DNA of 64,000 nucleotides. Source: Oscillospiraceae bacterium. Lineage in GTDB: Bacteria > Bacillota > Clostridia > Oscillospirales > Oscillospiraceae. Position 1 is the first letter of the stretch, and the number at the start of each line of letters is the position of its first letter. The notes under the pieces are model-generated. The model worked only from the letters and a program-made list of their open reading frames with translations. It did no database searches and was not told where the DNA came from. The position numbers were made by a program, and so were the translations under genes. The stretch spans positions 17,311 through 81,310 of the forward strand of contig JAGCAN010000001.1 in NCBI GenBank assembly GCA_017652685.1. Direction: 5' to 3'. Positions 14,400-39,095 of the stretch are shown in pieces.

Positions 14400-14400
14400 T

Positions 14401-21909: not shown

Positions 21910-22254
21910 ATGGCTACAAAACGATCAGACAGACAGGCAGGGAACCGCGGCGCATTTGATGCCGCCCGCCTCAAGATATTAAAGACCCAGACCATATGCG
22001 GGATCTGCGGCAAGCCGGTGGACTTCAGTTACAAGAATCCTCATCCGCTTGCTCCTACAGTCGATCACATCATTCCGGTTTCAAAGGGCGGGCACCCGTC
22101 AGACATAGCCAATCTGCAGCTGGCTCATCGCTGTTGCAACCGGGCCAAGGCTGACAGCCTGATCGAACCGAGAAAAAAAGACGAAAGTGATAAAGTGATC
22201 CCCAACGACATGTTGGAACAGCATTTTGATTGGATTAATTACAGGGCGAAGTGA
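21910..22254 (+). CDS. HNH endonuclease (packaging-associated)
   Basis: 'CGICGKP...TVDHIIPVSKGGHP...NLQLAHRCCNRAK'. Confidence 0.8.
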   Translation: MATKRSDRQAGNRGAFDAARLKILKTQTICGICGKPVDFSYKNPHPLAPTVDHIIPVSKGGHPSDIANLQLAHRCCNRAKADSLIEPRKKDESDKVIPNDMLEQHFDWINYRAK

Positions 22255-22352
22255 ACCTGGGGCGGGTGACTCCCTGCCGGTACCCCGGCGGCAATCCCTC
22301 TCCCGCCCACTGCACGAAAATTCACACTGTATGTTTTTCAACGGTGAAAACT

Positions 22353-22952
22353 ATGGAAGTATTGGCGATTTGCGAATTATGTGGCGCTGAATATTTAAAG
22401 AAAAATGGCAAAAGCAAGTACTGTTCTGATGCATGCAAAAAGGCTGCACGCAAAGAAACACTGGCAAAATGGCGCGAAGAAAACAAGGATTATCAAAAGA
22501 ATTGGCGAGAAGCGCATCCGGAATATGCTGCGGAGTGGGTGAAAAATCATCGCAGTTATGGTCGTGATAGATCAAGAAAAATCAGGGGCAGTAAAGAGCA
22601 CAACAGAAAATGTGTAGTATGCGGAAAAGAGTTTAGCACATATATTCAGCACAAACACACATGCTGTGATAAATGCAAATGCAGTCATAAGTTAAAACGT
22701 ATTCCAAAAGATCAGATTGTTGATACTGACATTACCGTCAAAGCGTTATATGAACGCGATGGCGGTATTTGTTATTTATGCGGAAAGCCTTGTGATTTCA
22801 ATGATATTGACAAAGAACGGCACGCGATTGGAAGCAATTATCCTACTGTTGATCATGTGATCCCGGTTACTCGTGGCGGGATGCATTCCTGGGACAACGT
22901 GAAGCTTGCTCATCTTAGTTGCAATTCCGCAAAGCACGATAAGGTGGTTTAA
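22353..22952 (+). CDS. Second HNH endonuclease with N-terminal Cys-rich repeats
   Basis: 'CYLCGKP...TVDHVIPVTRGGMHSWDNVKLAHLSCNSAK'. ATG at 22353. Confidence 0.75.
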   Translation: MEVLAICELCGAEYLKKNGKSKYCSDACKKAARKETLAKWREENKDYQKNWREAHPEYAAEWVKNHRSYGRDRSRKIRGSKEHNRKCVVCGKEFSTYIQHKHTCCDKCKCSHKLKRIPKDQIVDTDITVKALYERDGGICYLCGKPCDFNDIDKERHAIGSNYPTVDHVIPVTRGGMHSWDNVKLAHLSCNSAKHDKVV

Positions 22953-22954: not shown

Positions 22955-24169
22955 ATGGACGATTTCAAGGGTATTCCTTACCTGAAAAACAAACTGTCAT
23001 ACAAGAAAAACAGAACCCGTTTGCGGTACCAGTACTACGAGATGAAGACCAGAGCGCGGGATTTCGGCATCAGTTCCCCGCCGGATCTGCGTGGTTGGAT
23101 GAGCATTCTCGGCTGGTGTGCGCGTTCGGTGGACTGTCTCGCGGACAGGCTTGTGTTCAGAGAGTTTCGGGATGACATCTTCAACCTTAACTCGATCTAT
23201 GACTCAAATAATAAGGACGTCCTGATCGACTCCGCGATCCTTGGCGCTCTGATCAGTGCCTGTGATTTTATTTATATCACTGCTGATGAGGACGGTTTCC
23301 CCAGAATGCGCGTGATCGATGGCAGGCATGCGACCGGCATCATTGATCCGACGACTAACCTGCTCAAAGAAGGCTACGCCGTACTGGAATTTGATGATAG
23401 AGACCGGCCCGTCACGGAAGCATACTTCCTGCCTGGTGAGACGCAGATCTTCGAGGCCGGGAAAGAACCGTATAGCGTATTCAATCCTGCGCCATATCCA
23501 CTGCTGGTCCCGGTGATCTACCGTCCGGATGCGGTCAGGCCTTTCGGGCACAGCAGGATCAGCCGTGCATGCATGTCGATCGTAGACTCTGCAGCGCGTA
23601 CGGTCAAACGGTCTGAGATCGCGGCGGAGTTTTACAGCTATCCACAGAAATATATCCTCGGGATGGATCCTGACGCCGACAGAATGGAGAAATGGCAGGC
23701 GTCCATGTCGAGCCTGCTGCAGATCGACAAAGATGAGGATGGCGACAAGCCGACAGCGGGGCAGTTCCAGCAGGCTGCGATGACGCCGCACACGGAGCAG
23801 CTCCGGATGTTCGCCGGGATGTTCGCCGGCGAGACAGGTCTTACTCTTGACGATCTTGGCTTCCCGTCACAGAACCCTTCGAGCTCAGAGGCGATCCGCG
23901 CAGCGCATGAAACGCTGAGACTGATGGCCCGCAAGGCACAGCGGGACTTCGGCGTCGGGCTGCTTAATGCCGGCTATCTGGCCGCATGTGTGAGAGATGA
24001 CCAGCCGTACCTGAGACGGCAGCTGTACAGGACAAAGGCAGTGTGGGCACCGATTTTCGAGCCGGACGTCACAGCCCTCGGCGGGATCGGCGATGCGGTA
24101 CAGAAGATCCAGACATCGTTCCCGGACTATTTCGACGAGGATAAGCTCGAGGAGCTGACAGGTATCTAA
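22955..24169 (+). CDS. Portal protein (SPP1 gp6-like)
   Basis: Size, position, and typical N-terminus 'LKNKLSYKKNRTRLRYQYYEMK'. Confidence 0.8.
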   Translation: MDDFKGIPYLKNKLSYKKNRTRLRYQYYEMKTRARDFGISSPPDLRGWMSILGWCARSVDCLADRLVFREFRDDIFNLNSIYDSNNKDVLIDSAILGALISACDFIYITADEDGFPRMRVIDGRHATGIIDPTTNLLKEGYAVLEFDDRDRPVTEAYFLPGETQIFEAGKEPYSVFNPAPYPLLVPVIYRPDAVRPFGHSRISRACMSIVDSAARTVKRSEIAAEFYSYPQKYILGMDPDADRMEKWQASMSSLLQIDKDEDGDKPTAGQFQQAAMTPHTEQLRMFAGMFAGETGLTLDDLGFPSQNPSSSEAIRAAHETLRLMARKAQRDFGVGLLNAGYLAACVRDDQPYLRRQLYRTKAVWAPIFEPDVTALGGIGDAVQKIQTSFPDYFDEDKLEELTGI

Positions 24170-24170
24170 G

Positions 24171-24836
24171 ATGGACGTAACACAGATCCTTAGGATTTAT
24201 GACAAAAGAATATCGGGATTTTCTGTTTCCGACATCGCTGATTATGCAGCCGCTCAAAGGTATGCGCAGAAGACAGGGAAGGTCCTGGCCGATGTCATCT
24301 GCCAGTTTACGGACTTCCCCTCGCTCACTGAAGCGGACGCTGTGCCGCTTTTTACGACTACCCTTAAGCACAACCATGACAAGGTAGTAAAAGCCTGCAG
24401 ACGGGCACAGAGAGCGATAAACAACAAGGCGCGTGTCAGTCTCGGACTGCTTGATGCGGATTTTGACCCGGAAGGGGCAAGAGAGATCGCGTTTACGATC
24501 CTCGACGCCAAGGAGCTGACGCCTGATTTTGTTAAAAATCTCGTAGTCAATCATTCTAACCATACGGTAGACGAGACGATCCGCCGGAACACGGAAGCGC
24601 AGCAGGGTATCGGACTCGAAGTCCATATCACGCGCAAGTACGACGATGTCGGGCTCCATGACGGAAAGGATGCCTGCCAATGGTGCCTTGACCGCGAAGG
24701 TGACTGGAATGATTACCAGGAAGCTTATAACGCCGGATGCTTCGAGCGTCATCCGGGATGCGGATGCGTGATCGAATACAATGTCGGCAAGACGCATACA
24801 TGGTCCAACAACAAATACGACTGGAATAACATGTGA
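24171..24836 (+). CDS. Head morphogenesis / minor capsid protein (SPP1 gp7 / Mu F-like)
   Basis: Follows the portal gene. 'DGKDACQWCLDREGDW...HPGCGCV'. Confidence 0.6.
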   Translation: MDVTQILRIYDKRISGFSVSDIADYAAAQRYAQKTGKVLADVICQFTDFPSLTEADAVPLFTTTLKHNHDKVVKACRRAQRAINNKARVSLGLLDADFDPEGAREIAFTILDAKELTPDFVKNLVVNHSNHTVDETIRRNTEAQQGIGLEVHITRKYDDVGLHDGKDACQWCLDREGDWNDYQEAYNAGCFERHPGCGCVIEYNVGKTHTWSNNKYDWNNM

Positions 24837-24894
24837 GGGCATGATCATGATGACCAGGAACAAAGACCCCGCGAACCATAAGGAGGAATAAGCC

Positions 24895-26283
24895 ATGGAC
24901 AGAGTCGGGAGACAATCCCCGACGGTGTCCGTTATTCTGCCTTATAAAGAGACAAAAGGCCCGGAGGCGATCGAGCTCTATAACAAGAGCGAGAAATCAG
25001 CACTTGAGTGGCAGGAAGCGCTCACATATGACATCATGGCCGTGGACGACGACGGCTTATGGGTCCACCAGAAATTCGGGTACAGTGTACCGCGACGCAA
25101 TGGCAAGTCGGAAATGGCCCTTGCGAGATGTATCTGGGGACTGAAGCACCAGGAGCGCATACTGTATACGGCACACAGGGCAAGCACAGCACATTCCATC
25201 TGGGAGCGGCTGGGCAGGCTGTGCGTCAAGTGTGGGATCAGGATCGTATCGTCTTTCCGCGCATTCGGCAAAGAGCATCTGTATACAGATGACGGTGGAG
25301 TGATCGAGTTCAGGACGAGGACGTCGACGGGCGGCCTCGGCGAAGGATTCGACCTGCTGATCATCGATGAGGCACAGGAGTACACGCCGGAGCAGGAGAC
25401 GGCGCTCAAGTACGTCGTTACCGACTCGGCAAACCCTCAGACGATCCTTTTCGGCACGCCACCGACGGCGATCAGCGCCGGAACAGTCTTCCCAAACCTG
25501 CGGAAGAACATTCTGCAGGACGATTCATATGCTTCCGGATGGGCCGAATGGTCTGTCCCGGAACAGTCAAATCCGCATGATGTTGACCTTTGGTATGAGA
25601 CCAATCCTTCGCTCGGATACATCCTTACAGAGCGCACGATCCGCTCAGAGATCGGCGACGATGTTGTGGATTTTAATATCCAGAGGCTGGGGTTATGGAT
25701 TAAGTACAATCAGCGCTCAGCGATCAGCCGGAATGAATGGGAAGCACTGCAGGCCGACACAATGCCAAAGCTCAAAGGCAAGCTGTTCGCCGGGATCAAG
25801 TTCGGATCCGACGGCCAGAATGTGGCACTTGCGGTTGCCGCACGAACCACAGACGGAAAGATCTTCTGTGAAGTTATCGGCTGCAGGCCAATGAGGACAG
25901 GAGTCCAGTGGATCACTGATTTCCTCGGGCATGCCGACATACGGAAGGCGGTCGTTGACGGAAAGGCCGGAACAGACGTCCTTATCGATGCGGCAAAAGA
26001 AGCAGGCGTGAAACGTCCTGACACGGTAACTGTTCCAGAGGTCATAAAAGCGAATACCATTTTTGATATTGGTATGGAGCAGGGAACATTCCAGCACATG
26101 GCCCAGTCGGCCGTGACGCAGGTGGTTACCAACTGTGACCGCAGAAAGATCGGGACAAGCGGGCTCGGCTACAAATCCATAAAAGATGGAGCCGATATCG
26201 TACTGCTTGACTGCATGATCCTGGCTTACTGGATCTGCTCGGAAACAAAGGCAGATAAGAAAAAACAACATGCAAGCTATTAA
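24895..26283 (+). CDS. terL: Terminase large subunit
   Basis: Walker A 'PRRNGKSE', Walker B 'DLLIIDEAQE', nuclease-half length. RBS aaggagga. Confidence 0.85.
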   Translation: MDRVGRQSPTVSVILPYKETKGPEAIELYNKSEKSALEWQEALTYDIMAVDDDGLWVHQKFGYSVPRRNGKSEMALARCIWGLKHQERILYTAHRASTAHSIWERLGRLCVKCGIRIVSSFRAFGKEHLYTDDGGVIEFRTRTSTGGLGEGFDLLIIDEAQEYTPEQETALKYVVTDSANPQTILFGTPPTAISAGTVFPNLRKNILQDDSYASGWAEWSVPEQSNPHDVDLWYETNPSLGYILTERTIRSEIGDDVVDFNIQRLGLWIKYNQRSAISRNEWEALQADTMPKLKGKLFAGIKFGSDGQNVALAVAARTTDGKIFCEVIGCRPMRTGVQWITDFLGHADIRKAVVDGKAGTDVLIDAAKEAGVKRPDTVTVPEVIKANTIFDIGMEQGTFQHMAQSAVTQVVTNCDRRKIGTSGLGYKSIKDGADIVLLDCMILAYWICSETKADKKKQHASY

Positions 26284-26286
26284 GGA

Positions 26287-26310
26287 GCACCGGAATACCG
26301 GTGCTTTTTT
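26287..26310 (+). terminator. Rho-independent terminator after terL
   Basis: GCACCGG-aata-CCGGTGC followed by TTTTTT. Confidence 0.7.
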
Positions 26311-26360
26311 AATACATCTTTTTACGGATACCAACCGGATAAATGGGAAAGGAATTAAAA

Positions 26361-26858
26361 ATGGCGGAATTTACACCTATCAACACACAGGAAGAGTTTG
26401 ACGCAGCGCTTAAGGAGCGCCTTAAGAGAGACAGGGAAGCCCAGGCGAAGAAATTCGAAGGATGGATTTCCCCGGACGATCAGCAGAAAAGAGTGAATGA
26501 ATACGAGAAGCAGATCAAGGCACTGCAGGATGCAGCGGCCGAGTCTGAGAAGACACTCGCCGAGAAAGACGCTGAGATCGCAAAAGGCGCGAAATACAGG
26601 ACCGACCTGGAAAAAACGAGGATCGCGCTTGCGGCAGGACTCAAGATTGACTACGCCGACAGGCTCCGCGGAGAAAATGCGGACGAGTGGAAGAAGGATG
26701 CGGAGATCCTCGCGAAGGACTTCGCTGTCAGCCACCGCACAGCTCCGATCGGGAGCGCTGAAGGCGTGAATACCAATGCAGCAAAACAGAGCAAACAGGC
26801 CAGTGAGCGTGACGCTCTGCGGTCTATGATTCAGGGCCTGGATGCTTCAGCAAAATAA
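26361..26858 (+). CDS. Scaffolding protein (DUF4355-like)
   Basis: 'MAEFTPINTQEEFDAALKERLKRDRE'. Charged helical protein directly upstream of the capsid gene. Confidence 0.65.
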   Translation: MAEFTPINTQEEFDAALKERLKRDREAQAKKFEGWISPDDQQKRVNEYEKQIKALQDAAAESEKTLAEKDAEIAKGAKYRTDLEKTRIALAAGLKIDYADRLRGENADEWKKDAEILAKDFAVSHRTAPIGSAEGVNTNAAKQSKQASERDALRSMIQGLDASAK

Positions 26859-26873
26859 AAGGAGGCCAAAATA

Positions 26874-27797
26874 ATGGCAGTTCTTAGTAAAGCAAATCTT
26901 TTTGATCCGATCCTTGTCAACAAGCTGATCGACGGCGTGAAGGGCAAGAGTGCTCTTGCACAGCTGTGTGCTCAGGAGCCGATCCCGTTCAACGGCCAGA
27001 AGGAGTTCGTTTTCACGATGGGCTCCGAGGCGGCGCTCGTCGCTGAGAACGGCGCGAAGTCCGCGGGTAATGTTGCGATCACTCCCGTCATTATGAACCC
27101 CGTCAAAATCGAGTACGGAGCTCGTGTCTCTGATGAGTTCATGTACGCTTCCGAGGAAGAGCGCATCGACATCCTCGCCAGCTTCAATGACGGCTTCATG
27201 AAGAAGGCGGCACGCGCTCTTGACATCATGGCGATCCACGGCATGAATCCCAGGACGGCGACCGTTTCCGATCTCCTGACTGGCAAGTATTTCGACGCAG
27301 GCGTTCAGGCGGCGTATGAAGGCTCCGGCGACGCTGATCAGCTGGTCGAAGCAGGTATCGCACTGGTCGGTGCCGGTGAGTATGACGTGACTGGCATCGC
27401 AATGGCTCCTGCGCTCCGCACCAAGCTGGCACAGCTGACCCTCGGCACCAACAACCAGCAGGCGCGCTATCCCGAGCTCGGATGGGGCAAGGCTCCCGGC
27501 GTGATCAACGGCCTGCCGGCAGCGGTCAACTCCACTGTGTCCTTCGGATCCAGCCCTGACCTCGGCATCGTCGGCGACTTCGAGGGTGCGTTCAAGTGGG
27601 GCTACTCCAAAGAGATCCCGCTCAAGGTCATCGAGTATGGCTGCCCGGACAACGACACGACCGCAGGAGACCTGCAGGGCCACAACCAGGTCTACATCCG
27701 TTGCGAGCTGTACCTTGGCTGGGGCATCCTGGACAAGGCGGCGTTCGCGCTGCTCCGCAGCGGTGCTGCCGGCGCTACGGGTGCGACAGGCGCCTAA
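26874..27797 (+). CDS. Major capsid protein with C-terminal GATGATG tag
   Basis: Strong RBS aaaggagg, position after the scaffold gene, about 300 aa. Ends in SGAAGATGATGA. Confidence 0.8.
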   Translation: MAVLSKANLFDPILVNKLIDGVKGKSALAQLCAQEPIPFNGQKEFVFTMGSEAALVAENGAKSAGNVAITPVIMNPVKIEYGARVSDEFMYASEEERIDILASFNDGFMKKAARALDIMAIHGMNPRTATVSDLLTGKYFDAGVQAAYEGSGDADQLVEAGIALVGAGEYDVTGIAMAPALRTKLAQLTLGTNNQQARYPELGWGKAPGVINGLPAAVNSTVSFGSSPDLGIVGDFEGAFKWGYSKEIPLKVIEYGCPDNDTTAGDLQGHNQVYIRCELYLGWGILDKAAFALLRSGAAGATGATGA

Positions 27798-27813
27798 GAT
27801 CATGAGGTAAACC

Positions 27814-28785
27814 ATGGGCAAAGTGTTATTCACAAGCCGGAGGCCGCTGGGCCGCTGTGAGAACATCACGGCGGTCTACAATGCCTATGACGGCGATAAG
27901 GATTTCATACAGTCGAGCTGGGGAAAAGACCAGGATCCGCGTATCCGGTCAGGCGAGTTCTCCGTCATGGTGGCGGACGATTTCGTATCATACTCACCGG
28001 GCAAGCTGATCATGATCACACACGGGGCCTCCGGAGGCAAGACCTACGGATTAACACAGCCCATGGGCTATCATAACCGCCGACAGGCGGAGCTGATCGA
28101 TTATGTGGTCAGCACGAGCGAGACCACAAGGCAGCTGGAGGCGGTCCAGCACGGAGTGCCAGTCTCAAAGGTGCTCCCGCTCGGAATGCCGCGGATGGAT
28201 GCCTATTTTGACAAAAAGAAGGGAGACGGCGGGACGCCGCTGGCAAGAAAGAGGGCATATCTGTATGTCCCGACATTCCGCCGGCCGCAGGATCCTCCAA
28301 TGCCGGTGATCAACTGGCGATACATCGACAGCCTCCTGACAGACGATGAGATACTCGTCGTCAAGAGGCACATGGTAACACGGATACCTCTGTTAAATGA
28401 CCAGTACAGGCATATCTTCGAGGCGTTGCCGAACGTCCCGTCTGCGCCGTACCTGATCGACAGCGACGTTGTAATCACAGACTACAGCTCCATACTCTTC
28501 GACGCGCATGTGCTCGGCAAGCCGCTCATTTTGCTCGAGAAGAACATCGGCTTCGTCCAAACGCGCCGCATGTCGTATCCGTACCCGGACGGCTACTCGT
28601 CAAGGTACGTGAACAGCGAGGAGGAGCTGGTCAACTACATGAGACATTCGGAAGGTCAGCAGGAGCTTGACCTTCTGTGTAAAGAGAGATGCTGCGGAGC
28701 CTGTGACGGGCACGCCACGGAGCGGGTCGTAGACCTGATAAGGAGAGTTGCGGATGAGGATCCTGATTGCAGTCCCCACGTTTGA
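27814..28785 (+). CDS. CDP-glycerol glycerophosphotransferase (TagB/TagF family)
   Basis: 'AYLYVPTFRR' and 'VITDYSSILFDAHVLGKPLILLEKN' family signatures. Confidence 0.8.
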   Translation: MGKVLFTSRRPLGRCENITAVYNAYDGDKDFIQSSWGKDQDPRIRSGEFSVMVADDFVSYSPGKLIMITHGASGGKTYGLTQPMGYHNRRQAELIDYVVSTSETTRQLEAVQHGVPVSKVLPLGMPRMDAYFDKKKGDGGTPLARKRAYLYVPTFRRPQDPPMPVINWRYIDSLLTDDEILVVKRHMVTRIPLLNDQYRHIFEALPNVPSAPYLIDSDVVITDYSSILFDAHVLGKPLILLEKNIGFVQTRRMSYPYPDGYSSRYVNSEEELVNYMRHSEGQQELDLLCKERCCGACDGHATERVVDLIRRVADEDPDCSPHV

Positions 28786-29398
28786 GAATATTTACCCTGA
28801 TACATACCAGTCGATCTGGGACCTCGACAAGGGGGGTCACACGGTCGACTTTTCTTTTGTCCGCGGTTATGACTGCGCTACGGCAAGAAACCGTATCGCC
28901 GACAAGGCCATGAAGGGCGGATACGACTATGTGCTCATGGTCGACAACGATGTGGTACTGCCGAAGACGATCCTCATCGATATGCTCGACGAGTCGGTGG
29001 ACGTATGCCTCGGGTATTACGCGCACCGGAACGAAAACAACCTCTACACAGGGCGTGTTTCGGCGTGCCGGCTTAAGGATGACAGGGGCATGGCGTATTA
29101 CAACTACCCTCTGGAATCTGAATATACGGCTGCAGAGATGCAGGCGATGCACGAGGCGGGCACAAAGAAAATACAGATCCATGGCGGCGGCATGGGCTGC
29201 GCGCTGATCAGGACGGAAGTCTTCAGGCGTCTCCGTTATCCCTGGTATGACTGGGTGAACTACGCAGACAACAACCGCGGGATGCTGTCAGAAGATCTGT
29301 ATTTTTGCGAGCAGTGCAAGCACGCGGGGATCCCGGTCTACACGGACGCCCGCGCTGGCAGCGGGCATATCCTCAGACATGTCCAGTGGCCGGAGTAA
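28754..29398 (+). CDS. GT-A-fold glycosyltransferase
   Basis: 'ILIAVPTFENIYPDT', 'YVLMVDNDVVLP' (DxD). RBS ggag 8 nt before the ATG at 28754. Confidence 0.7.
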   Translation: MRILIAVPTFENIYPDTYQSIWDLDKGGHTVDFSFVRGYDCATARNRIADKAMKGGYDYVLMVDNDVVLPKTILIDMLDESVDVCLGYYAHRNENNLYTGRVSACRLKDDRGMAYYNYPLESEYTAAEMQAMHEAGTKKIQIHGGGMGCALIRTEVFRRLRYPWYDWVNYADNNRGMLSEDLYFCEQCKHAGIPVYTDARAGSGHILRHVQWPE

Positions 29399-29408
29399 GG
29401 TGGACGAG

Positions 29409-29558
29409 ATGAAATACATTAACATAAAAACCGGCTCGATCCTTGAGACGCCTGCGGTGATCGTGAGCGAGAACTGGAAGGCAATTGAGGAGTCGAAACG
29501 GGAAGAAAAAGTTGCGCCGGCGCAAAAGCAGCAGCGGCAGAAGAGGACGAAAAAATGA
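29409..29558 (+). CDS. Small basic protein (49 aa, below ORF-track cutoff)
   Basis: RBS aaggtgg. Manual translation MKYINIKTGSILETPAVIVSENWK...QKRTKK. ATGA-coupled to the next gene. Confidence 0.4.
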   Translation: MKYINIKTGSILETPAVIVSENWKAIEESKREEKVAPAQKQQRQKRTKK

Positions 29559-29971
29559 GTGCATTTGTAACCACGGCTGAGCTTGAGGCCTATACGGGCG
29601 TCAGCTATACAGGCGCAGACATCGTACGCGTGGAGACTCTTCTGCCGCTTGTATCCGACCTTATCCGGAGCGAGGGTAAAAGAGTCGGCGTCAATGTGGA
29701 TGCAAAGATGGAGTCCGATGAGGCTTATGCGTCCGTTGTCAAGATGGTCACATGTGACGTTATGGTGCGCGTTATGCGCCAGTCTATGACGGGTGATCCT
29801 CTGACCCAGGAATCTCAGAGTGGGCTTGGCTACTCATGGTCGGGCACGTACACGATCCCAGGCGGAGGCGCAGCGATGTCACTGATGAACAATGAAAAGA
29901 AACTGCTCGGATTCCGCCGGCAGAGATATGGAGTGATGGAGCTATGGGAAGGCTGCACGGGATCACAGTGA
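29555..29971 (+). CDS. Head-tail connector (gp6-like)
   Basis: 'VTTAELEAYTGVSYTGADIVRVETLLPLVSDLI' is a typical connector N-terminus. Confidence 0.65.
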   Translation: MSAFVTTAELEAYTGVSYTGADIVRVETLLPLVSDLIRSEGKRVGVNVDAKMESDEAYASVVKMVTCDVMVRVMRQSMTGDPLTQESQSGLGYSWSGTYTIPGGGAAMSLMNNEKKLLGFRRQRYGVMELWEGCTGSQ

Positions 29972-30282
29972 CCTTGTACAACAAGGTCGAAACTGGTGTT
30001 GACGGTTTTAACCGTCCGGTATACGAAGATATACCCGAACAGGTCGAGAACGTGCTCGTGGGCAGTCCCTCGGCACAGGAAGTCATCGACACGCTCAATG
30101 TGACGGGGAAAAAGGCAGTCTATATTCTCGGCATCCCTAAGGGCGACACGCATGTGTGGACAGATCGGAAAGTCGAGATTAATGGCGAAGTTTTCCATAC
30201 GTTTTCGCGTCCCACAACAGGCATACAGGATCTTATCCCTCTTGACTGGGGGCAGAATGTGATGGTGGAGATCTATGAGTAA
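29944..30282 (+). CDS. Head closure / head-tail adaptor
   Basis: Position, and a 'TLYNKVETGVDGFNRPVYE' pattern. Confidence 0.5.
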   Translation: MGRLHGITVTLYNKVETGVDGFNRPVYEDIPEQVENVLVGSPSAQEVIDTLNVTGKKAVYILGIPKGDTHVWTDRKVEINGEVFHTFSRPTTGIQDLIPLDWGQNVMVEIYE

Positions 30283-30547
30283 GAATGTTGATTTCAAACT
30301 GAATATCTCAGGCCTGCGAGAACTCATGCAGTCTACTGAGATGCAGGCGGCCCTGCAGGAAGCCGGCGACGCTGTGGCAGCGGCTGCCGGTGACGAGTAT
30401 GATGTACGCGTCCATGTCGCAGATTTTGTAGCGATCGCGAACATCTATCCGAACAGCAAGCAGGCAGCGCAGGAAAACTACGAAAGCAACACTCTGCTCC
30501 ATGCGCTTGGCTCCGTCGGCCTCAATATGTCGAAGGGAGGCTCATGA
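30275..30547 (+). CDS. Neck protein (HK97 gp10-like?)
   Basis: Position only. Confidence 0.4.
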   Translation: MSKNVDFKLNISGLRELMQSTEMQAALQEAGDAVAAAAGDEYDVRVHVADFVAIANIYPNSKQAAQENYESNTLLHALGSVGLNMSKGGS

Positions 30548-30909
30548 TGCTGATTGAAAAGATCGTGCTCGATCACCTGCGCGAAAACCTCATGGTCCCT
30601 GTCTATATGGAAGTGCCGGAAATTCCGTCGGAATCACACGCAGTGATGCCGACGGAATTTGTTGTTATAGATAAGTTCGCCGGATCCGTCACCAACAAAG
30701 TGTGGTCGGCCTCGATCGCGATCCAGTCATACAGCTTAACGAGTATGTATGGAGCGGCGCTGCTTAATGATGCAGTGCATGAGGTCATGGACGAAATGGC
30801 GGATCATGTGCCTGAAATAAGCGGGTGCAAGATGACGGCGGACACGAATTTTACTGACGTACGCACTAAGCGGTACCGCTACCAGTGCACGTACAACATT
30901 TTCTACTAA
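30544..30909 (+). CDS. Tail terminator/completion-like protein
   Basis: Position directly upstream of the major tail gene. Confidence 0.4.
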   Translation: MMLIEKIVLDHLRENLMVPVYMEVPEIPSESHAVMPTEFVVIDKFAGSVTNKVWSASIAIQSYSLTSMYGAALLNDAVHEVMDEMADHVPEISGCKMTADTNFTDVRTKRYRYQCTYNIFY

Positions 30910-30923
30910 GGAGGGCAAGCGAT

Positions 30924-31517
30924 ATGTCTGGTGTAGCAACCAATGTCACTGCCGGCAAGCCTAAAACGAGTGGTGCTGTTTTTACTGCTCCGATCACGGC
31001 AACAATGCCGACAAACGCGACTGCGGACCTCAGTTCCGATTTCCAGGACATGGGGTTCCTCTCTGAGGACGGCTACTCTAAAAACGTGTCTATCTCCACA
31101 TCCACCATCAAGGAGTGGGGCGGACAGGTCGTGCTGGTCACCCAGGACGAGAAGAGTGCCACCTTTAAATTCAAAATGATCGAATACCTGCGCGACACTG
31201 TGCAGAAGTTTGTAAACGGCACTGCCAACGTGACCGGAAGCCTTGCGGAAGGCATGAGCGTGACCGTCAATGGCGACGAAGCTGAAGAACGCGCCCTGGT
31301 CATTGATCAGATCCTGCGCGGGAACGTCGCACATCGCCTTGTCGTGCCATGCTGCAAGATCACAGAGATGAGTGAGGTCGTTTACAAGATGAACGAAGCG
31401 GTGGGCTATGAAGTCACCGTGGCAGCCACTAAGGACGCATCCGGCAACTACTTCCACGAGTACTTCAAGGGTCCTACGGGAGCGACCGGTGCGACCGGTG
31501 AAGGTGGTGAAGGATGA
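30924..31517 (+). CDS. Major tail (tube) protein, phi13-like, with C-terminal GATGATG tag
   Basis: 'NVTAGKPKTSGAVFTAP...LSEDGYSKN...IKEWGGQVV'. RBS aaggaggg. Ends in GPTGATGATGEGGEG. Confidence 0.8.
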   Translation: MSGVATNVTAGKPKTSGAVFTAPITATMPTNATADLSSDFQDMGFLSEDGYSKNVSISTSTIKEWGGQVVLVTQDEKSATFKFKMIEYLRDTVQKFVNGTANVTGSLAEGMSVTVNGDEAEERALVIDQILRGNVAHRLVVPCCKITEMSEVVYKMNEAVGYEVTVAATKDASGNYFHEYFKGPTGATGATGEGGEG

Positions 31518-31792
31518 TCAGAGGGACGACTAAGACCGGGTTTGAGTTCGAACTGAATGATGACCTTTTTGATGATTTCGAACTCGTCGAGGCTTTTGCC
31601 AAATACAATAAGAACCCTCTTTTCCTCGGAGAACTCGCAGAGAGGCTCCTGGGCGCTGACCAGAAGGCGGCGCTCATGGAGTTCCTGCGCGGAGATGACG
31701 GCAAGATTAGAACCTCTGATATGATCAAGGCTCTCACAGATATTGAGGAGGCGATCCCCGCGGCAAAAAACTCCGGGCCCTCGCCGACATGA
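31514..31792 (+). CDS. Tail assembly chaperone (G-like)
   Basis: Position between the tail tube and tape measure genes. Slippery site near its 3' end. Confidence 0.7.
   Translation: MIRGTTKTGFEFELNDDLFDDFELVEAFAKYNKNPLFLGELAERLLGADQKAALMEFLRGDDGKIRTSDMIKALTDIEEAIPAAKNSGPSPT
31765..31771 (+). promoter_or_regulatory. Programmed -1 frameshift slippery heptamer A_AAA_AAC
   Basis: Zero-frame codons are gcA AAA AAC. The -1 frame is open through to the ATG of 31789-32163. Confidence 0.7.
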
Positions 31793-32163
31793 TGCAATAC
31801 CCCGACGAGCTCACCTGCGATATGGCTGAGACGTACGGGGTTTTTGACATTAAGAGGCTTCCGGCAAGACTTGCCGCGACGCTTGCTGTCGGTCTGAGGG
31901 ATACATCCAGGGTAAAGATGGCACTGACAGGAACCAAGGCATCAGATGAGGTTATGCTCCTCGCTGCGCTTGTGGATGCGCTGAAAAATCTGTGCTGGAA
32001 CCTGGCGGGAGCCGATGAGGAAAACAAACCAGTATCAATGGTCAAGTATTACCTGAACGGCAAAAAGCTTGATGAGCCTGAGCCGCAGGAAAAGAATTTT
32101 GAGGTTTTTGATTCTCCGGAAGATTTCCAGGCGAAATGGAAAAAACTGAAGGAGGGAGGTTGA
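31789..32163 (+). CDS. Tail assembly chaperone extension (T-like part of the G-T fusion)
   Basis: -1 frame relative to 31514-31792 and contiguous with the slippery site. Confidence 0.65.
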   Translation: MMQYPDELTCDMAETYGVFDIKRLPARLAATLAVGLRDTSRVKMALTGTKASDEVMLLAALVDALKNLCWNLAGADEENKPVSMVKYYLNGKKLDEPEPQEKNFEVFDSPEDFQAKWKKLKEGG

Positions 32164-32167
32164 TTTT

Positions 32168-33904
32168 ATGTCTCAACTTGGACAGGCATATGTACAGATC
32201 ATACCTGAAGCGCAGGGCATATCCGGGGCGATATCTGATGTGCTCGCAGGGCCTGCCGAGTCTGCCGGACAGGACGCCGGGAAGAAATTCGGCGCAGGTT
32301 TCGGCGGGAAGCTCGGTAAAGGGCTTGCTGTAGCTGGTGCCGGCGTTGTAGCGCTCGGAGCTGCTGCAGGCGCTGCCCTCGGCAAATCTATATCAGATGT
32401 GAGCCAGTACGGCGACAATGTAGATAAAATGTCGCAGAAAATAGGCTTTTCGCGGAAAGGTTTTCAGCAGTGGGACTACGTACTTCAGAGGGCCGGGACC
32501 AACATCAACAGTATGGCTCCGGTCATGAAGAAGCTGTCATCCGCGGCAGTGGAAAACTCTGATGCTTTCCAGGAGCTCGGAATCAGCCAGGAAGAAGTCG
32601 CCAACATGTCGCAGGAAGAGCTTTTTGGCCGCACGATCGAGGCCCTGTCCGGCATGGAGGAAGGCGCGGAGCGTACTGCGCTGGCATCTAAGCTGCTCGG
32701 CAAAGGCGCGTCTGAGCTGGCTCCGCTGATCAATGGCGGAACCGATGCCATCAAGGAACAAATGCAGATGGCGGAAGATTACGGCATGGTCCTGTCGGAC
32801 GAATCCGTAAAGGCCGCCGCTGATTTCTGCGATGCTCAGACCACCCTGCAGGGCGCAATGACCGGTTTTAAAAACAAAGTCAGTGCAGAGTTCCTGCCGG
32901 CAGCGACAGATGTCGTTAATGGGATCGCAAAGATGTTTGCCGGAGATCCATCCGGTTTTGATGACATAAAAAATGGCGTCGGGAAGATCGCGACGGACAT
33001 TGTAGCGAAGATCCCTGACTTCCTGGCGGCCGGAGGGGAACTGATCGGCGGGCTCATTCAGGGTCTTGTCGAACGGCTTCCGGAGATGGCCACACATGCC
33101 GCAGAAGCGATCAAGTCGTTCGCGGAGGGATTCGGCTCACAGTCTGAGGGCGGAAGCCAGCTCCTGGCAAATGCTGCTCAGCTCATGATGGATCTCGGTG
33201 GAGCTATGCTGGAAGCGGCAGCCATACTGATCCCTGCAGTCATAGAAGCTATCTGGACATTCTTCACGACGACTGACTGGCTCGGCCTTGGCATGCAGGT
33301 TGTTGACACACTTTACCAGGGCTTTCAGGACATCTTCCCGCAGGCAGTTTCATTTGTCGAAGAAAAAGTAAAAGAGATCATGGACCTGCTCGGGTTTAGC
33401 GGCCTTGTTGATCAGGTACAGAAACTCTTTAGCTCTGTCAAAGAGGGAATAACAGGACCGATTGACACGGCAAAAGAACTCGTCAGCGGAGCTGTGGAAA
33501 AAATCAAGGGTCTTTTCCCGATTTCAATGGGCAAGATCTTTTCCGGCATCAAGCTGCCACACTTTAAAATCTCCGGAGGCGAGATCCCGTGGGGCATTGG
33601 CGGAGCAGGAAGCCCGCCGAGCGTTGACATCGAATGGTATAAGCAGGGCGGTATCATGACAAAACCGGTTCTGTTCGGTGGCGGTGAAGCCGGAAAAGAA
33701 GGTATCGTCCCGCTGGATCCTTTCTGGGACCGTATGGACCGAATGACGGATTCCGTCATCAATGGGGTTAATACAGTACTTGCGGCAGGATCTGGGGCTG
33801 GCGGAGACATACACATTGTCCTCTATGCTTATCCAGGGGGGCCGCAGATGGATGAGATCATTGTCAAGTCCTATGATCGCGGAAAGGACAACGGATTGAA
33901 ATGA
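32168..33904 (+). CDS. Tape measure protein
   Basis: 578 aa, Ala/Gly-rich helical, 'GKGLAVAGAGVVALGAAAGAALG'. Correct position. Confidence 0.85.
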   Translation: MSQLGQAYVQIIPEAQGISGAISDVLAGPAESAGQDAGKKFGAGFGGKLGKGLAVAGAGVVALGAAAGAALGKSISDVSQYGDNVDKMSQKIGFSRKGFQQWDYVLQRAGTNINSMAPVMKKLSSAAVENSDAFQELGISQEEVANMSQEELFGRTIEALSGMEEGAERTALASKLLGKGASELAPLINGGTDAIKEQMQMAEDYGMVLSDESVKAAADFCDAQTTLQGAMTGFKNKVSAEFLPAATDVVNGIAKMFAGDPSGFDDIKNGVGKIATDIVAKIPDFLAAGGELIGGLIQGLVERLPEMATHAAEAIKSFAEGFGSQSEGGSQLLANAAQLMMDLGGAMLEAAAILIPAVIEAIWTFFTTTDWLGLGMQVVDTLYQGFQDIFPQAVSFVEEKVKEIMDLLGFSGLVDQVQKLFSSVKEGITGPIDTAKELVSGAVEKIKGLFPISMGKIFSGIKLPHFKISGGEIPWGIGGAGSPPSVDIEWYKQGGIMTKPVLFGGGEAGKEGIVPLDPFWDRMDRMTDSVINGVNTVLAAGSGAGGDIHIVLYAYPGGPQMDEIIVKSYDRGKDNGLK

Positions 33905-34281
33905 TGACCGAATTAGATTTTATCATCATCAACGGAGAGCAGATTCGGCGCCCGCCGAATTTCTCGCCTGCAAGAGAGGACATCTATAAAGGCGAGTACA
34001 CGACATGTACGGGTAAGCTGATCGCGGACCGGGTAGGATGGAAGTACTCTGACATGACACTCGAATGGGCCGCCCTGCCCCAGCATATGGTTGATGTCCT
34101 TATCGGCATGAACGGTGTCAGCACAATTGTCTTTGATGACCTTGACGGCGAGATCGTTGAGGAAGAGATTGTCAGGACTTCTGCTGTCGCGCTGCGCCAT
34201 AGATTTACCCATGGCGGCGTAACATTGTGGAAAGATGTTAAGGTAAAGATCAAATTCATCGAATCGCATACGGAGGGCTGA
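33901..34281 (+). CDS. Tail-associated protein (126 aa)
   Basis: ATGA-coupled to the tape measure gene. Function called from position only. Confidence 0.5.
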   Translation: MMTELDFIIINGEQIRRPPNFSPAREDIYKGEYTTCTGKLIADRVGWKYSDMTLEWAALPQHMVDVLIGMNGVSTIVFDDLDGEIVEEEIVRTSAVALRHRFTHGGVTLWKDVKVKIKFIESHTEG

Positions 34282-36872: not shown

Positions 36873-39095
36873 ATGGCTGTGAAAAGATCTTATAGAATCA
36901 ATCTTAGAAATTATGGTAACCCACCGGCAATCATGCTGTCACAGTATGACGAAAACTACGCGCTGGTATTCGAGGTTTTTGACGGTGCACTTCCGGCGGC
37001 AAGCCTCACATCATATACCGTCAAGCTTAAGGGACGTCAGCCCGGATCCGACAATCCTGCACTGGCATATGAGTTTACGGGCACGATATCAGGAACTCTT
37101 GGCAATGTCTTAAGCTTTACGATCGATACGACGATGACGGCCCGGGCCGGCAAAGGCACAGCTGAGATCGTGATCATTGATTCGTCCAATGATGTCAAGT
37201 TCGCGACATTTAATCTGCCTGTCTACATCGAAAAAGCAGCCGTTCCTGATAACGCGATTGACGCAGATGTCGAGAGAGCCCAGGAGATCGCTGATCAGGT
37301 ACAGGACATTGTAGATACAGCTGCCGCCACCGTAGGAGCTGAGGCAGAAGCCTGGGCCGTCGGCCAGAGAGACGGAGTAGACGTACCGAGCACAGATCCC
37401 GCATATGAGAATAACGCGAAATTTTACGCGGAGCAGGCAGCACAGATCGCAGAGGACATCTCCGGAGTCACTGATCAGGTAGCAACAAATACCAGTGACA
37501 TCTCAGATTTAAAGGAAGATTTAAATTCCATTGTCGGTGATTTCAAAACGCTTGACCAGTTTCCGCAGACGGTCGGAATCATCAACTCAACAGGGGTATG
37601 GGTTTATACATCCAACAACAATTACAAGCATGTAGTTGTTCCTGTAACTGGTGGGGAATCGGTAACAATAACAGGGAACTCTGCATATAACACATATATT
37701 GCTTTTTTAAAGACGTACTCTGCTCCTGTTAGTGGCAGTGCTGATTTTTCAGAGGCAACAGGATTTACTGGAAGAATCCAGCTTGCTAAAGGCGGGTCAT
37801 ATAGTTACACTGCGCCGTCAGATGCAACTTATATGTATATTCTGATGCTCGAAAATGAACATAACACCATGCCGTCAGCCTTAGTTATTGGTGGAGTTGA
37901 TTATTTTAAATCGTACTCTGACATGATTGAGGAAACTGTAGATAAAGCCAATGCTGATAACATCAAAGTTGACGCTTTGGAAAGTGCGGTCAGCGGATTG
38001 GATTACAAACCGATAGAAGCATATCCCGAAACGTATGGAATGATTAAGGCAGACGGCACATGGGGGAACATCGTCAGCACCTACACGCACAGAGCAATCC
38101 CTGTTAAAGGTGGGGACAGAATCGAAATCATAGGAAATGCTGATTATAACTCCGTAATTGCGCTTTTAAAATCGTATAGTGTAGTAAACGGAACTAATGC
38201 GGATTTTTCTGCATCATATCAGAGCAGAATCCAAATAGCTAAAAGCGGACACAGATTTTGGGATGTTCCGTCAGACGCAACATATCTTTTTGTACAGGTT
38301 AAATTGGGCGGTGATGATACAACACCTATTAAAATCCGCATCAATAATGTCGATATAACAGATGGACTTACGACAAACCTTGAAGAGTTGTATAGTCCTG
38401 ATACGGTCAGATGGTGTGTCATGGGCGATTCAATCCCTAACGGATACCATTCAGAAGCAGGTGACACAAGCGAGGGTGACGAGGGAGAAGAAACGAGCGA
38501 AACTGTTAGGTGGCGCACATGGGCTTATCTTGTGGCTACTTGGAATCACTGGCAGATTGATAACATCGCTATAGGTGGGAGCGGTTATCTGCTGACGAGG
38601 AACGGCGAAAGTGGATACACGCTCGGAAGGTCTGTGGATTTTACAAAATACAACCTTGTGACTATCGCATACGGAATCAACGATTGGAAGGGCAACCAAG
38701 TGATGGGTGACATCACGGATGATCCGACAGGCATTACTCCTACCACTGTCATTGGAGCAATTAAGGCTACTATTGAAGGAATCCTTGCAAGCAATCCCAA
38801 TATCAAGATTATCGTCATCACTCCGCTTAACTGCTACGGATACAATCATGATTACGGTACAGAATCAACTAACTGGGCGTTAGGTTATGAGTTCTCCAAC
38901 AGCGGAACACTGGAAAGTTTTGTTCAGAAACTCATTGAGGTCTGCAACTATTACGGCATCCAGTATATCGACATGACGCACTATTCGCCCATTAATCGCA
39001 AAAATCTGCCTACTATGGTTCCTGATGGTGTACATCCGTCACTTGCATGCCATAACCTTATCGCTCATCAGCTTAGTAAGCAGATTACGTTCTGA
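36873..39095 (+). CDS. Receptor-binding protein: BppU-like N-domain, two tandem paralogous domains, C-terminal SGNH/GDSL esterase
   Basis: BppU-like N-terminus. Repeats at aa 226-343 and 378-494. SGNH blocks 'MGDSI', 'IGGSG', 'YGINDW', 'DGVHPS'. Confidence 0.75.
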   Translation: MAVKRSYRINLRNYGNPPAIMLSQYDENYALVFEVFDGALPAASLTSYTVKLKGRQPGSDNPALAYEFTGTISGTLGNVLSFTIDTTMTARAGKGTAEIVIIDSSNDVKFATFNLPVYIEKAAVPDNAIDADVERAQEIADQVQDIVDTAAATVGAEAEAWAVGQRDGVDVPSTDPAYENNAKFYAEQAAQIAEDISGVTDQVATNTSDISDLKEDLNSIVGDFKTLDQFPQTVGIINSTGVWVYTSNNNYKHVVVPVTGGESVTITGNSAYNTYIAFLKTYSAPVSGSADFSEATGFTGRIQLAKGGSYSYTAPSDATYMYILMLENEHNTMPSALVIGGVDYFKSYSDMIEETVDKANADNIKVDALESAVSGLDYKPIEAYPETYGMIKADGTWGNIVSTYTHRAIPVKGGDRIEIIGNADYNSVIALLKSYSVVNGTNADFSASYQSRIQIAKSGHRFWDVPSDATYLFVQVKLGGDDTTPIKIRINNVDITDGLTTNLEELYSPDTVRWCVMGDSIPNGYHSEAGDTSEGDEGEETSETVRWRTWAYLVATWNHWQIDNIAIGGSGYLLTRNGESGYTLGRSVDFTKYNLVTIAYGINDWKGNQVMGDITDDPTGITPTTVIGAIKATIEGILASNPNIKIIVITPLNCYGYNHDYGTESTNWALGYEFSNSGTLESFVQKLIEVCNYYGIQYIDMTHYSPINRKNLPTMVPDGVHPSLACHNLIAHQLSKQITF

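Follow-up and report, generated by a model that had tools for sequence, protein, structure and literature searches.

Glycosylation of phage structural proteins has previously been described in the mycobacteriophages Che8, Corndog and Myrna, whose phage-encoded glycosyltransferases modify capsid and tail-tube subunits (Freeman et al. 2023, as cited in PMC12363180 and PMC11256854). In the phage analysed here, both of these proteins were found to be tagged at their C-termini. In contrast to the mycobacteriophage system, however, the proposed acceptor was an explicit, portable Gly-X-Thr repeat, the genes formed part of the head-tail operon and were not placed at the end of the genome, the cassette included a TagF-family enzyme, and the host looked Gram-positive and Eubacteriales-like. 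The enzymes were non-homologous to Che8 gp109 and gp110 (hhalign probability <1%). The capsid and tube proteins of Che8 also shared their last residues (...TGS and ...DGS, both ending GS).

A second group of related enzymes was formed by the wall teichoic acid synthases TagF, TarL, TagB and TarF, with which the phage TagF-like protein shared PF04464 membership, a GT-B fold and the donor-site elements (PTxR, DYSS and the equivalent of H584). It differed from them in being a 323-aa catalytic core without the membrane-association region and in being encoded between capsid and connector genes. Moreover, these synthases act on a lipid-linked wall precursor, whereas the presumed acceptor of the phage enzyme would be a glycoprotein. 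In Gram-negative capsule polymerases, TagF-like and glycosyltransferase modules jointly build sugar-polyol-phosphate chains. Cps3D (PDB 8qoy, 9e-13) and Bcs3 (PDB 8a0c, 4e-12) were structural matches of the TagF-like model, and their pairing of a TagF-like with a glycosyltransferase module resembled both the present gene pair and the GT8 fusions of its phage relatives. Nevertheless, the present enzymes were separate small proteins without TPR or other scaffold domains, and in place of the lipid-linked primer of Cps3D and Bcs3 the presumed primer was a protein tag, with polymerisation only putative.

For the glycosyltransferase, the best structural match was another small virus-encoded GT-A enzyme, STIV A197 (PDB 2c0n), although it comes from an archaeal virus, was only 17% identical, and has no tag system to our knowledge. 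The other nearest solved folds included the collagen-directed GT-A enzymes COLGALT1, LH3 and Mimivirus R699, but the TM-scores for collagen glycosyltransferases were only 0.55-0.62 and there was no sequence homology. A glycosylated collagen-like protein, BclA, is known from the Bacillus exosporium, and the phage tags resembled Gram-positive collagen-like regions in offering a Gly-X-Y acceptor with Thr at Y (PMC8968730). In contrast to these, they had only 2-11 triplets, stood at the extreme C-terminus and lacked a globular C-terminal domain.

Gene order and C-terminal tags

The window, that is, the whole 64,000-nt stretch of DNA analysed, was filled by the 47,893-bp genome of a temperate siphophage encoding recombinase and repressor-like genes. 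Since the genome was wrapped on itself, positions 1-16107 were the same as 47894-64000. The following features were considered:

26874..27797, + strand: major capsid protein, 307 aa, HK97-type (Pfam Phage_capsid 2e-9; phrog_10 "major head protein" 6e-38)
27762..27794, + strand: capsid C-terminal tag, G-A-A G-A-T G-A-T G-A, then stop (read directly from the sequence)
27814..28785, + strand: TagF-family (CDP-polyol phosphotransferase-like) enzyme, 323 aa (PF04464 Glyphos_transf)
28754..29398, + strand: GT-A-fold glycosyltransferase, 214 aa (phrog_1574 2.5e-15; phrog_34859 "glycosyltransferase" 2e-6)
29379..29558, + strand: small ORF, 59 aa (phrog_36603, unknown function, 1.4e-10)
29555..30909, + strand: head-tail adaptor, head closure, neck and tail terminator genes (phrog_137, 501, 387, 123; Pfam Phage_Gp19)
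30924..31517, + strand: tail tube (major tail) protein (PF25681 Phage_TTP_17 3e-13; phrog_117 1.3e-37)
31470..31514, + strand: tube C-terminal tag, G-P-T G-A-T G-A-T G-E-G G-E-G, then stop (from the sequence)

The open reading frames were present as an earlier note on this DNA had listed them, and the sequence and profile matches agreed with its placement of two transferase genes between the capsid and the connector genes. The small ORF followed the glycosyltransferase gene, and the adaptor, closure, neck and terminator genes filled the interval up to the tube gene, so that the two enzymes were encoded within the late structural operon. The TagF-like gene had a ribosome-binding site (GAGG) 8 nt upstream of its ATG, and its end was overlapped by 32 nt by the start of the glycosyltransferase gene. 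The opening MKILIAVPTFE of homologues made ATG 28754 the most likely start codon of the latter. For the tube gene, ATG 30924 was a more likely start than the listed GTG 30885; the phrog_117 match to the listed frame began at residue 14.

The capsid protein ended in ...LLRSGAAGATGATGA and the tube protein in ...GPTGATGATGEGGEG, so that both terminated in runs of Gly-X-Thr triplets with collagen-like spacing. The heptapeptide GATGATG, which the earlier note had seen in no other supplied translation, was unique to these two C-termini: all six frames of the window contained only these 2 sites, against 0.00028 occurrences expected from the window's own residue frequencies, and the tag pair was not due to chance. 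It was likewise correct that the codons of the two tags were unlike each other (ggcgctacgggtgcgaca versus ggagcgaccggtgcgacc).

Since the phage was temperate and phage glycosyltransferases often target polymers of the host surface (for example, as proposed in PMC8008677), both enzymes might serve lysogenic conversion, remodelling the host cell wall with the tag being unrelated. We considered this very unlikely. No promoter or terminator was seen on the + strand around the two enzyme genes, their GC3 was that of the neighbouring late genes, and both products were predicted to be soluble, which, together with the late-operon placement, argued against conversion as the earlier note had reasoned from placement. 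Two further findings (see below) pointed in the same direction, namely the joint presence of tag and glycosyltransferase in unrelated families of capsid and tail proteins and the lack of the tag in enzyme-less relatives.

The two enzymes

Both enzyme assignments of the earlier note were upheld by profiles and predicted folds. The TagF-like protein matched Glyphos_transf with E 4.9e-26 (92 bits, cut-off 22.1), contained AYLYVPTFRR and VITDYSSILFD, and matched the PDB profiles of TarL (2.4e-22) and TagF (6.8e-17). In the PDB profile alignment, its H186 corresponded to TagF H584; this residue and the PTFR and DYSS donor motifs were conserved, and H70-G71 was invariant. No residue-by-residue alignment was obtained for the catalytic-base histidine (TagF H444, TarL H300). 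The AF2 model (pLDDT 89.5) showed a minimal GT-B fold, and the nearest folds in Foldseek were TarL (5e-18, TMq 0.75-0.80), TagF and TagF-like capsule polymerases. No hydrophobic or membrane-binding segment was found in the protein. It scored far under the NCBIfam cut-offs of TarF, TarL and TarB, and its substrate was thus not transferable by orthology. The scan of window proteins revealed no gene for CDP-glycerol or CDP-ribitol synthesis.

The glycosyltransferase had a DxD motif (D64-N65-D66) that was invariant in 28 homologues, as were HGGGMGCA and SEDLYFC. With its AF2 model (pLDDT 85.6), Foldseek ranked STIV A197 first (1.5e-9), followed by collagen galactosyltransferases, Mimivirus R699 and ppGalNAc-T2. 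The predicted fold was therefore nearest to a viral glycosyltransferase and to protein- and collagen-directed GT-A enzymes.

Association of the tag with the glycosyltransferase gene

A tag-trimmed capsid profile recovered 80 IMG/VR loci with homologous capsids. Both the capsid and the tube protein carried (GAT)n in 3/3 loci with the TagF-like and glycosyltransferase genes, and such tags were found in 0/77 enzyme-less loci, so the co-occurrence that the earlier note had proposed to look for was strong; it was confounded by relatedness, however, because the three tagged loci were also the closest relatives (75-86% versus at most 60% identity). Likewise, (GAT)2 tails ended 0/1297 ORFs in the 77 enzyme-less loci versus 34/1443 in TagF-like loci. 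The enzyme-less capsid homologues stopped ~10-15 residues sooner, at ...GWGILDxxAFARIxx, and the tube homologues at ...THYEYIKKGE.

Beside the enzymes, tagged head proteins belonged to families phrog_10, 544, 422, 909, 212 and 3270 and tagged tail proteins to phrog_117, 88, 820, 2645 and 885. Across many uncultured phages the tag was portable, being found in at least six unrelated capsid and five tail-tube families and always beside the GT-A gene. The link that the earlier note had drawn between the tag and both enzymes held for the glycosyltransferase, as 62 of the 69 glycosyltransferase loci were tagged, but not for the TagF-like gene, which was absent near most tagged capsid genes. It was present within 8 kb in only 10/69 of these loci, although four loci scored as lacking it carried a TagF-like gene (40-43%) elsewhere on the contig, making the true TagF-less fraction of tagged phages uncertain. 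Conversely, a GT-A homologue lay within 1.5 kb in 21 of the 26 TagF-like loci having both flanks, and the stop codon of one gene often overlapped the start codon of the next. Thus, across these loci the tag followed the GT-A gene, its constant partner, and the TagF-like gene appeared to be an optional add-on. In relatives, the slot between the capsid and glycosyltransferase genes held a GT8 gene or a GT8-TagF fusion, as in L238, whose capsid protein bore (GAT)4; the GT8 domain was fused to relatives of the phage TagF-like gene in either order.

Among 96 distinct tags, the repeat number varied from 2 to 11 and 90 finished within 4 residues of the stop. The X position was Ala in 226/307 triplets, with Glu, Ser and Val among the others, and Thr was the invariant residue. 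More distant cassettes had other Thr-rich tails common to both proteins (GGDTGDTAQG in L023, TTTTTGA in L046). The tails could instead be unmodified collagen-like structural elements with a trimerising or cementing role, given their Gly-X-Y spacing and the fact that Thr is the commonest Y residue of Gram-positive collagen-like proteins (PMC8968730). Some relatives did have 8-11 triplets. Nevertheless, we found this explanation highly improbable: a stable triple helix needs more than the 2-5 triplets of the window tags; capsid and tube relatives that lack a tail still assemble; the alternative tags TTTTT and GDTGDT retained Thr and not the collagen register; and the strict glycosyltransferase link was left unexplained.

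Proposed coating of the virion

We propose that the acceptor would be the short C-terminal Gly-X-Thr extension carried by each of the two exposed proteins that are most abundant in the virion. Late in infection, the soluble GT-A enzyme (28754-29398) would recognise the tag in the cytoplasm and attach a sugar to its threonines. The TagF-like enzyme (27814-28785) would then take a host CDP-polyol, most likely CDP-glycerol and possibly CDP-ribitol, and attach one or more polyol-phosphate units to the tag sugar, giving head and tail a sugar-polyol-phosphate decoration resembling teichoic acid. On the basis of sequence comparison and models, we regard O-glycosylation of tag Thr followed by polyol-phosphate addition as probable, with modest confidence; here we infer Thr as the acceptor, the reaction order, the donor and the chain length. 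The sugar-first order fits because the glycosyltransferase was the constant tag partner and the TagF-like gene optional.

In the reverse order, the TagF-like enzyme would put polyol-phosphate straight on tag Thr, forming a phosphodiester to protein, and the GT-A enzyme would glycosylate the polyol. The two genes are adjacent and overlapping, and GT-A enzymes that glycosylate teichoic-acid polyols (ribitol-phosphate) exist, namely TarS and TarP. However, the nearest solved folds were protein-directed glycosyltransferases, not TarS or TarP, and the GT8 sugar transferases in the same slot would fit extension of a primed sugar. Moreover, most tagged phages had the glycosyltransferase without an adjacent TagF-like gene, so it must be capable of using the bare tag, and we considered the reverse order quite improbable.

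A somewhat stronger contender, though still unlikely, was that only the glycosyltransferase has a virion target and the TagF-like enzyme acts elsewhere, on host wall teichoic acid precursors (blocking superinfection or re-adsorption) or on phage DNA. Prophage enzymes altering teichoic acid are known, and TagF-like homologues were also found outside structural modules (in L224 beside RNA ligase, Thy1 and DNA methylases, and similarly in L225), suggesting that the family may have other targets. In phage SP-15, a TagF-like gene was proposed to act in DNA hypermodification (PMC5977210). In the present lineage, however, the TagF-like gene was enclosed by the capsid gene and that of the tag-linked glycosyltransferase, its translation being coupled, and it occupied a slot common to GT8, including the fusion beside the (GAT)4 capsid. 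The protein lacked a membrane-binding segment, late expression just before lysis would be a poor fit to wall remodelling, and the window proteins scanned included no base-hypermodification enzyme, the sole DNA-modifying match being an N6 methylase.

Thus, the interpretation of the earlier note was partly supported, with the glycosyltransferase and the tag as the putative core of the system and the slot gene as an exchangeable elaborating enzyme, which is TagF-like here and in relatives is a GT8 enzyme or a GT8-TagF fusion. The sequence comparisons suggest that tag and glycosyltransferase form a modular, undescribed route by which phages coat their own particles. Speculatively, such a coat may benefit the phage by shielding it from antibodies or proteases, or by altering its surface charge and adhesion.

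Genome layout around the tagged capsid protein

The window was a 47,893-bp genome wrapped round itself: 16,075 30-mers were repeated at an offset of 47,893, and positions 1-16107 were the same as 47894-64000. These recurring ends suggested a circular or circularly permuted contig. The 47.9-kb genome was complete, and prophage-like contigs were present among its relatives. The genome was that of a temperate siphophage and contained portal, terminase, scaffold, capsid, connector, tube, tape-measure and tail genes as well as recombinases. Its endolysins had GH25 and CW_7 domains, as those of phages infecting Gram-positive hosts typically do. Two tyrosine-recombinase genes were located on the + strand (12827-13915 and 19845-20867), and a - strand ORF (43658-44974) resembled a serine recombinase. 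There were also three HNH endonuclease genes (14335-15414, 21910-22254 and 22251-22952). A 740-aa tail protein (36873-39095) carried a GDSL/SGNH esterase domain at its C-terminal end (Pfam 5.6e-16) and may deacylate a cell-wall polymer when the phage adsorbs.

Features of the region between the capsid and tail tube genes (window numbering)
26874-27797, + strand: major capsid protein, C-terminus ...SGAAGATGATGA, then stop
27814-28785, + strand: TagF-family gene (PF04464)
28754-29398, + strand: GT-A-like glycosyltransferase (GT) gene, 32-nt overlap with the end of the TagF-like gene
Between the GT gene and the tail tube gene: a 59-aa ORF, then four connector genes
End at 31517, + strand: tail tube protein, C-terminus ...GPTGATGATGEGGEG, then stop

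This layout, with the TagF-like and GT genes between the capsid and connector genes, matched the description in the earlier note. As the note had also reported, the capsid and tube ends both carried GATGATG, and direct reading of the two tags confirmed that their codons differed. The six-frame translation contained no other copy (0.00028 expected by composition). The GC3 of the enzyme genes was 0.72 and 0.73 versus 0.74 for the capsid gene. On the + strand, neither a promoter nor a terminator specific to the enzyme genes was found, and the possibility that the pair was a moron with either element was rejected. An antisense ORF of 340 aa (26847-27869, - strand) covered the entire capsid gene; it was without supporting evidence and was probably just a side effect of that gene's high GC3.

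The TagF-like protein and the glycosyltransferase

The TagF-like protein matched PF04464 (Glyphos_transf) at 92 bits against a gathering threshold of 22.1 (E 4.9e-26). Its residues 69-309 were aligned to profile positions 104-365 of 367, and the first ~100 profile positions were unmatched. The AF2 model (pLDDT 89.5) had a compact GT-B two-domain fold, for which Foldseek placed TarL nearest (8va1, E 5e-18, TMq 0.75-0.80), followed by TagF (3l7* entries, E about 1e-15), Cps3D (8qoy, 9e-13) and Bcs3. Thus, the assignment of 27814-28785 to the TagF family, originally made from short motifs, was borne out by both the Pfam score and the TarL/TagF-like predicted fold. A PDB search with a profile of 21 TagF-like homologues retrieved TarL (2.4e-22), TagF (6.8e-17) and the TagF-like capsule polymerase Cps3D (1.2e-14). 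In the alignment, M583-H584 of TagF corresponded to R185-H186 of the window protein, PTWR to PTFR and DYSS to DYSS, and H186, P153, T154, R156, D223, Y224 and S225 were invariant in the 21 homologues. H70-G71 was invariant as well; it lay where the Pfam match begins, and its spacing from the aligned core was as expected. It was presumed to be the catalytic base equivalent to TagF H444 and TarL H300, and the HMMER alignments began downstream of it.

The NCBIfam equivalog models scored far below their cut-offs (TarF 34.7 bits vs 550, TarL 30.9 vs 1000, TarB 26.3 vs 500). Moreover, no hydrophobic or membrane-association segment was found in the 323-aa protein, whose top 19-residue hydropathy window was 0.94. 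By these comparisons it was a PF04464 member but an orthologue of no wall teichoic acid enzyme: it shared the GT-B fold and donor motifs with the wall teichoic acid synthases and lacked their membrane-association region. A role as a glycerol- or ribitol-phosphate transferase using a CDP donor was plausible. There were ~890 homologues in public data. In cellular genome contigs the profile found only distant ones, from Streptomyces, Lachnospiraceae and other taxa and never above 35% identity, which pointed to no particular host; host names looked up by cluster went no further than 'Eubacteriales bacterium'.

The GT-A-like reading of 28754-29398 was likewise upheld, since the AF2 model (pLDDT 85.6) had a GT-A fold and the D64-N65-D66 (DxD) motif was invariant among homologues. 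The model had 123 PDB structural matches at E<=0.001, and among the matches listed most were GT-A glycosyltransferases. The nearest solved structures were STIV A197, the human collagen galactosyltransferases COLGALT1 and LH3, Mimivirus R699 and ppGalNAc-T2, that is, viral and protein-directed GT-A enzymes with moderate TM-scores (0.55-0.62). Among viral structures, GT-A domains from uncultured phages and collagen-modifying enzymes of giant viruses came closest. At the sequence level, no curated family was matched above its cut-off (the sole Pfam match, Anp1, scored 24 bits against 28.8, and NCBIfam gave none), and no PDB relative was found. There were ~2,600 homologues in public data.

A megablast search of 24000-34000 against GenBank phages gave no match. 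In tblastn searches of the same records, the TagF-like protein found only unannotated records at 23-28% identity, and the best match of the GT (37.8%, L296:1119-2087) was in Caudoviricetes sp. vir323 (BK063679; host Methanobacteriales). This phage was without C-terminal tags and had an internal DTGDTGSTGSTGD ~25 residues before the end of its annotated prohead protease. From these searches of GenBank phages, we concluded that the system was present in no cultured phage.

Tag and enzymes among related phages

A capsid profile trimmed of the tag was run on IMG/VR and yielded 80 loci. Three of them encoded both the TagF-like protein and the GT, and all three had (GAT)n on the capsid and tube proteins. 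None of the 77 loci without the enzymes (capsid identity 47-60%) was tagged, although this contrast was confounded by relatedness. The untagged homologues ended in ...GWGILDxxAFARIxx (capsid) and ...THYEYIKKGE (tube); since they stopped earlier, the tag was a 10-15-residue add-on. Tails with (GAT)2 occurred in 0 of 1297 ORFs in the enzyme-less loci versus 34 of 1443 in TagF-like loci. Tagged proteins beside the same enzymes spanned head families phrog_10, 544, 422, 909, 212 and 3270 and tail families phrog_117, 88, 820, 2645 and 885, and the confounding by relatedness was removed because the same association was seen across different protein families. An NCBI metagenome-assembled contig labelled Eubacteriales had identical synteny and identical tags.

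When 96 distinct tags were compared, the Gly and Thr positions were fixed and the middle residue was variable (Ala in 226 of 307 triplets, then Glu, Ser and Val). The tags were 2-11 triplets long, and 90 of the 96 were within four residues of the stop. In distant cassettes, the two proteins had other Thr-rich tails in common (GGDTGDTAQG in locus L023, TTTTTGA in L046). Since Thr was fixed and the distant tails were still Thr-rich, Thr was likely to be the functional residue. The co-occurrence of tag and enzymes in relatives, whose absence the earlier note had named as refuting its reading, was thus positive by three independent lines: same-family contrast, cross-family spread and residue pattern. 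A search of IMG/VR with a (GAT)3 DNA pattern gave at least 120 matches; among those listed, 98 were internal collagen-like repeats and 1 was C-terminal, and none was accompanied by the GT.

In many relatives (L011, L012, L013, L015, L017, L030, L235-L237 and others), small head proteins ending ...IVFRTNIGVNGATGATGATGST were also tagged. Their ORFs (117-138 aa) were directly upstream of the enzymes, and the one scanned, from L011, matched phrog_909 'major head protein'. Some phages had three different tagged virion proteins. Furthermore, in relatives without the enzymes or GAT tails, capsid and tube proteins often still had their last 3-6 residues in common (L161, L169, L171, L176, L177, L186, L189, L196), as in the pairs ...GGGVEG/...GGGVEG, ...DPASL/...EEPSL, ...GASA/...TPSA, ...GGGE/...GGGD and ...GGANG/...TQANG. 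These ends may belong to other C-terminal recognition or modification systems.

A scan with the GT profile found 69 further loci, 62 of which carried Gly-X-Thr tails on the capsid protein, a small head protein or the tube protein. A TagF-like gene was within 8 kb in only 10 of the 69. Four further loci had one more than 10 kb away on the same contig, with 40-43% identity to the window protein (L045/L261, L047/L247, L049/L257, L052/L265), and at least 11 contigs of 33-99 kb had GT and tag but no match in a collection-wide TagF motif scan. In L045, a divergent GT-A gene (~25% identity) preceded the distant TagF-like gene by ~0.5 kb. Conversely, of 26 TagF-like loci for which both flanks were present, 21 had a GT-A homologue at most 1.5 kb away, and in most of these the stop codon of one gene overlapped the start codon of the next. 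As judged from these genomic patterns, the link between tag and GT was strong. A reverse order, with polyol-phosphate first placed onto Thr, was disfavoured because most tagged phages had the GT without an adjacent TagF-like gene. Pure lysogenic conversion by both enzymes, which would leave the tag aside, was an unlikely reading.

The slot between capsid and GT genes, filled by the TagF-like gene in the window, held a GT8 glycosyltransferase (Pfam) in L229 (3579-4373), L244 (7279-8010) and L246 (7298-8032). L239 (5021-5824) and L277 (4356-5153) had a gene of similar size (~265 aa) at that position. The slot genes of these five loci encoded ~245-265 aa, and the capsid proteins of L229, L239, L244 and L277 ended in ...SGATT or ...AAGGTT. 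In L238, a GT8-TagF fusion (3498-5111) filled the slot and the capsid protein ended in (GAT)4, while the homologue P0029 had the two domains in reversed order. The simplest reading of this arrangement would be a core pair of tag and priming GT with exchangeable glycan-extending enzymes.

It was also possible that the TagF-like enzyme acted elsewhere, on the host wall or on DNA. Two homologues (L224:3447-5123 and L225:10001-11005) were located outside the structural module among early or DNA-metabolism genes, one being a GT8 fusion adjoining RNA ligase, Thy1-like and DNA methylase genes and the other belonging to a 100-kb phage contig, so the family may have further targets. The proposed part of a phage TagF-like gene in DNA hypermodification in SP-15 provided a precedent (PMC5977210). 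However, in the lineage studied here the TagF-like and GT8 genes used a common slot and GT8 fusions were found, and no base-hypermodification enzyme was present among the window proteins scanned. DNA hypermodification was rejected for this window because those proteins included no base-modification pathway.

Proposed virion coat and its relation to known systems

We propose that late in infection the soluble GT would O-glycosylate the tag threonines of capsid and tube subunits, and that the TagF-like enzyme would then move polyol-phosphate from a host CDP-polyol onto the tag sugar. The second step parallels the action of TagB, TagF and the TagF-like capsule polymerases, whose acceptors are sugars. 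In HK97-fold capsid proteins and siphophage tube proteins, the C-terminus is commonly exposed at the surface, so the product would coat both head and tail. The window proteins scanned included no cytidylyltransferase, and the donor would thus have to be supplied by the host; donor, chain length and benefit to the phage are all inferred. The earlier note had read the tag as an acceptor primed by the GT and extended by the TagF-like enzyme. This reading was partly supported: the tag-GT link was strong, and the polyol-phosphate step, a teichoic-acid-like elaboration of the tag glycan, was only plausible.

The closest known biology was virion glycosylation in mycobacteriophages, whose capsid and tube proteins are modified by phage glycosyltransferases (PMC12363180, PMC11256854). 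In mycobacteriophage Che8, as in the window phage, phage GTs were accompanied by capsid and tube proteins with a common candidate acceptor C-terminus (gp6 and gp11 of Che8 both end in GS). The two systems differed in tag, gene position, likely host type and the TagF-like component. Homology between the GTs was rejected on hhalign probabilities of 0.3% (gp110) and 0.1% (gp109). The TagF-like capsule polymerases Cps3D and Bcs3 also couple a TagF-like module to a GT, and in the window the two genes were adjacent and overlapping.

Gram-positive collagen-like glycoproteins such as BclA have Thr-rich Gly-X-Y regions (PMC8968730), and the window tags and the 96 tags of relatives similarly had Gly-X-Y with Thr at Y. 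In contrast to the 27 to 1158 residues of Bcl collagen-like regions (PMC8968730), the window tags comprised only 2-5 triplets at the extreme C-terminus (GAA-GAT-GAT in the capsid protein, GPT-GAT-GAT-GEG-GEG in the tube protein), too few for a stable triple helix and with no globular domain behind them. An unmodified, purely structural collagen-like tail was unlikely. Literature searches on virion-associated TagF-like enzymes or glycerol-phosphate in phages, and on capsid tags of collagen-like type, gave no account of this system.

We tentatively suggest, as a reading that is quite possible though short of probable, a portable 'tag and coat' module in many uncultured phages whose hosts are probably Gram-positive bacteria of the gut or rumen. 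A Gly-X-Thr tag could be placed on any capsid, decoration or tube protein, primed by a dedicated GT and elaborated by exchangeable enzymes; here the TagF-like enzyme would build covalent teichoic-acid-like sugar-polyol-phosphate chains on the virion. We know of no virus particle for which such chain chemistry has been reported, and to our knowledge phage-encoded virion glycosylation has been shown so far only for a few mycobacteriophages.

The finding points to a second virion-glycosylation system, non-homologous to that of mycobacteriophages and apparently widespread. Since its acceptor is defined by sequence, it can be recognised directly in genomes, which opens the questions of what peptide features direct phage glycosylation, how glycan cassettes are exchanged among phages and whether virions can bear anionic, teichoic-acid-like polymers. 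The short tag and the small soluble GT make up a minimal pair that is attractive for engineering the glycosylation of proteins or phages and, if the reading is true, could serve as a programmable protein-glycosylation tool. For the phage itself, such a coat would alter surface charge, antibody and protease access and adhesion to mucus or cell wall, and possibly re-adsorption to host debris.
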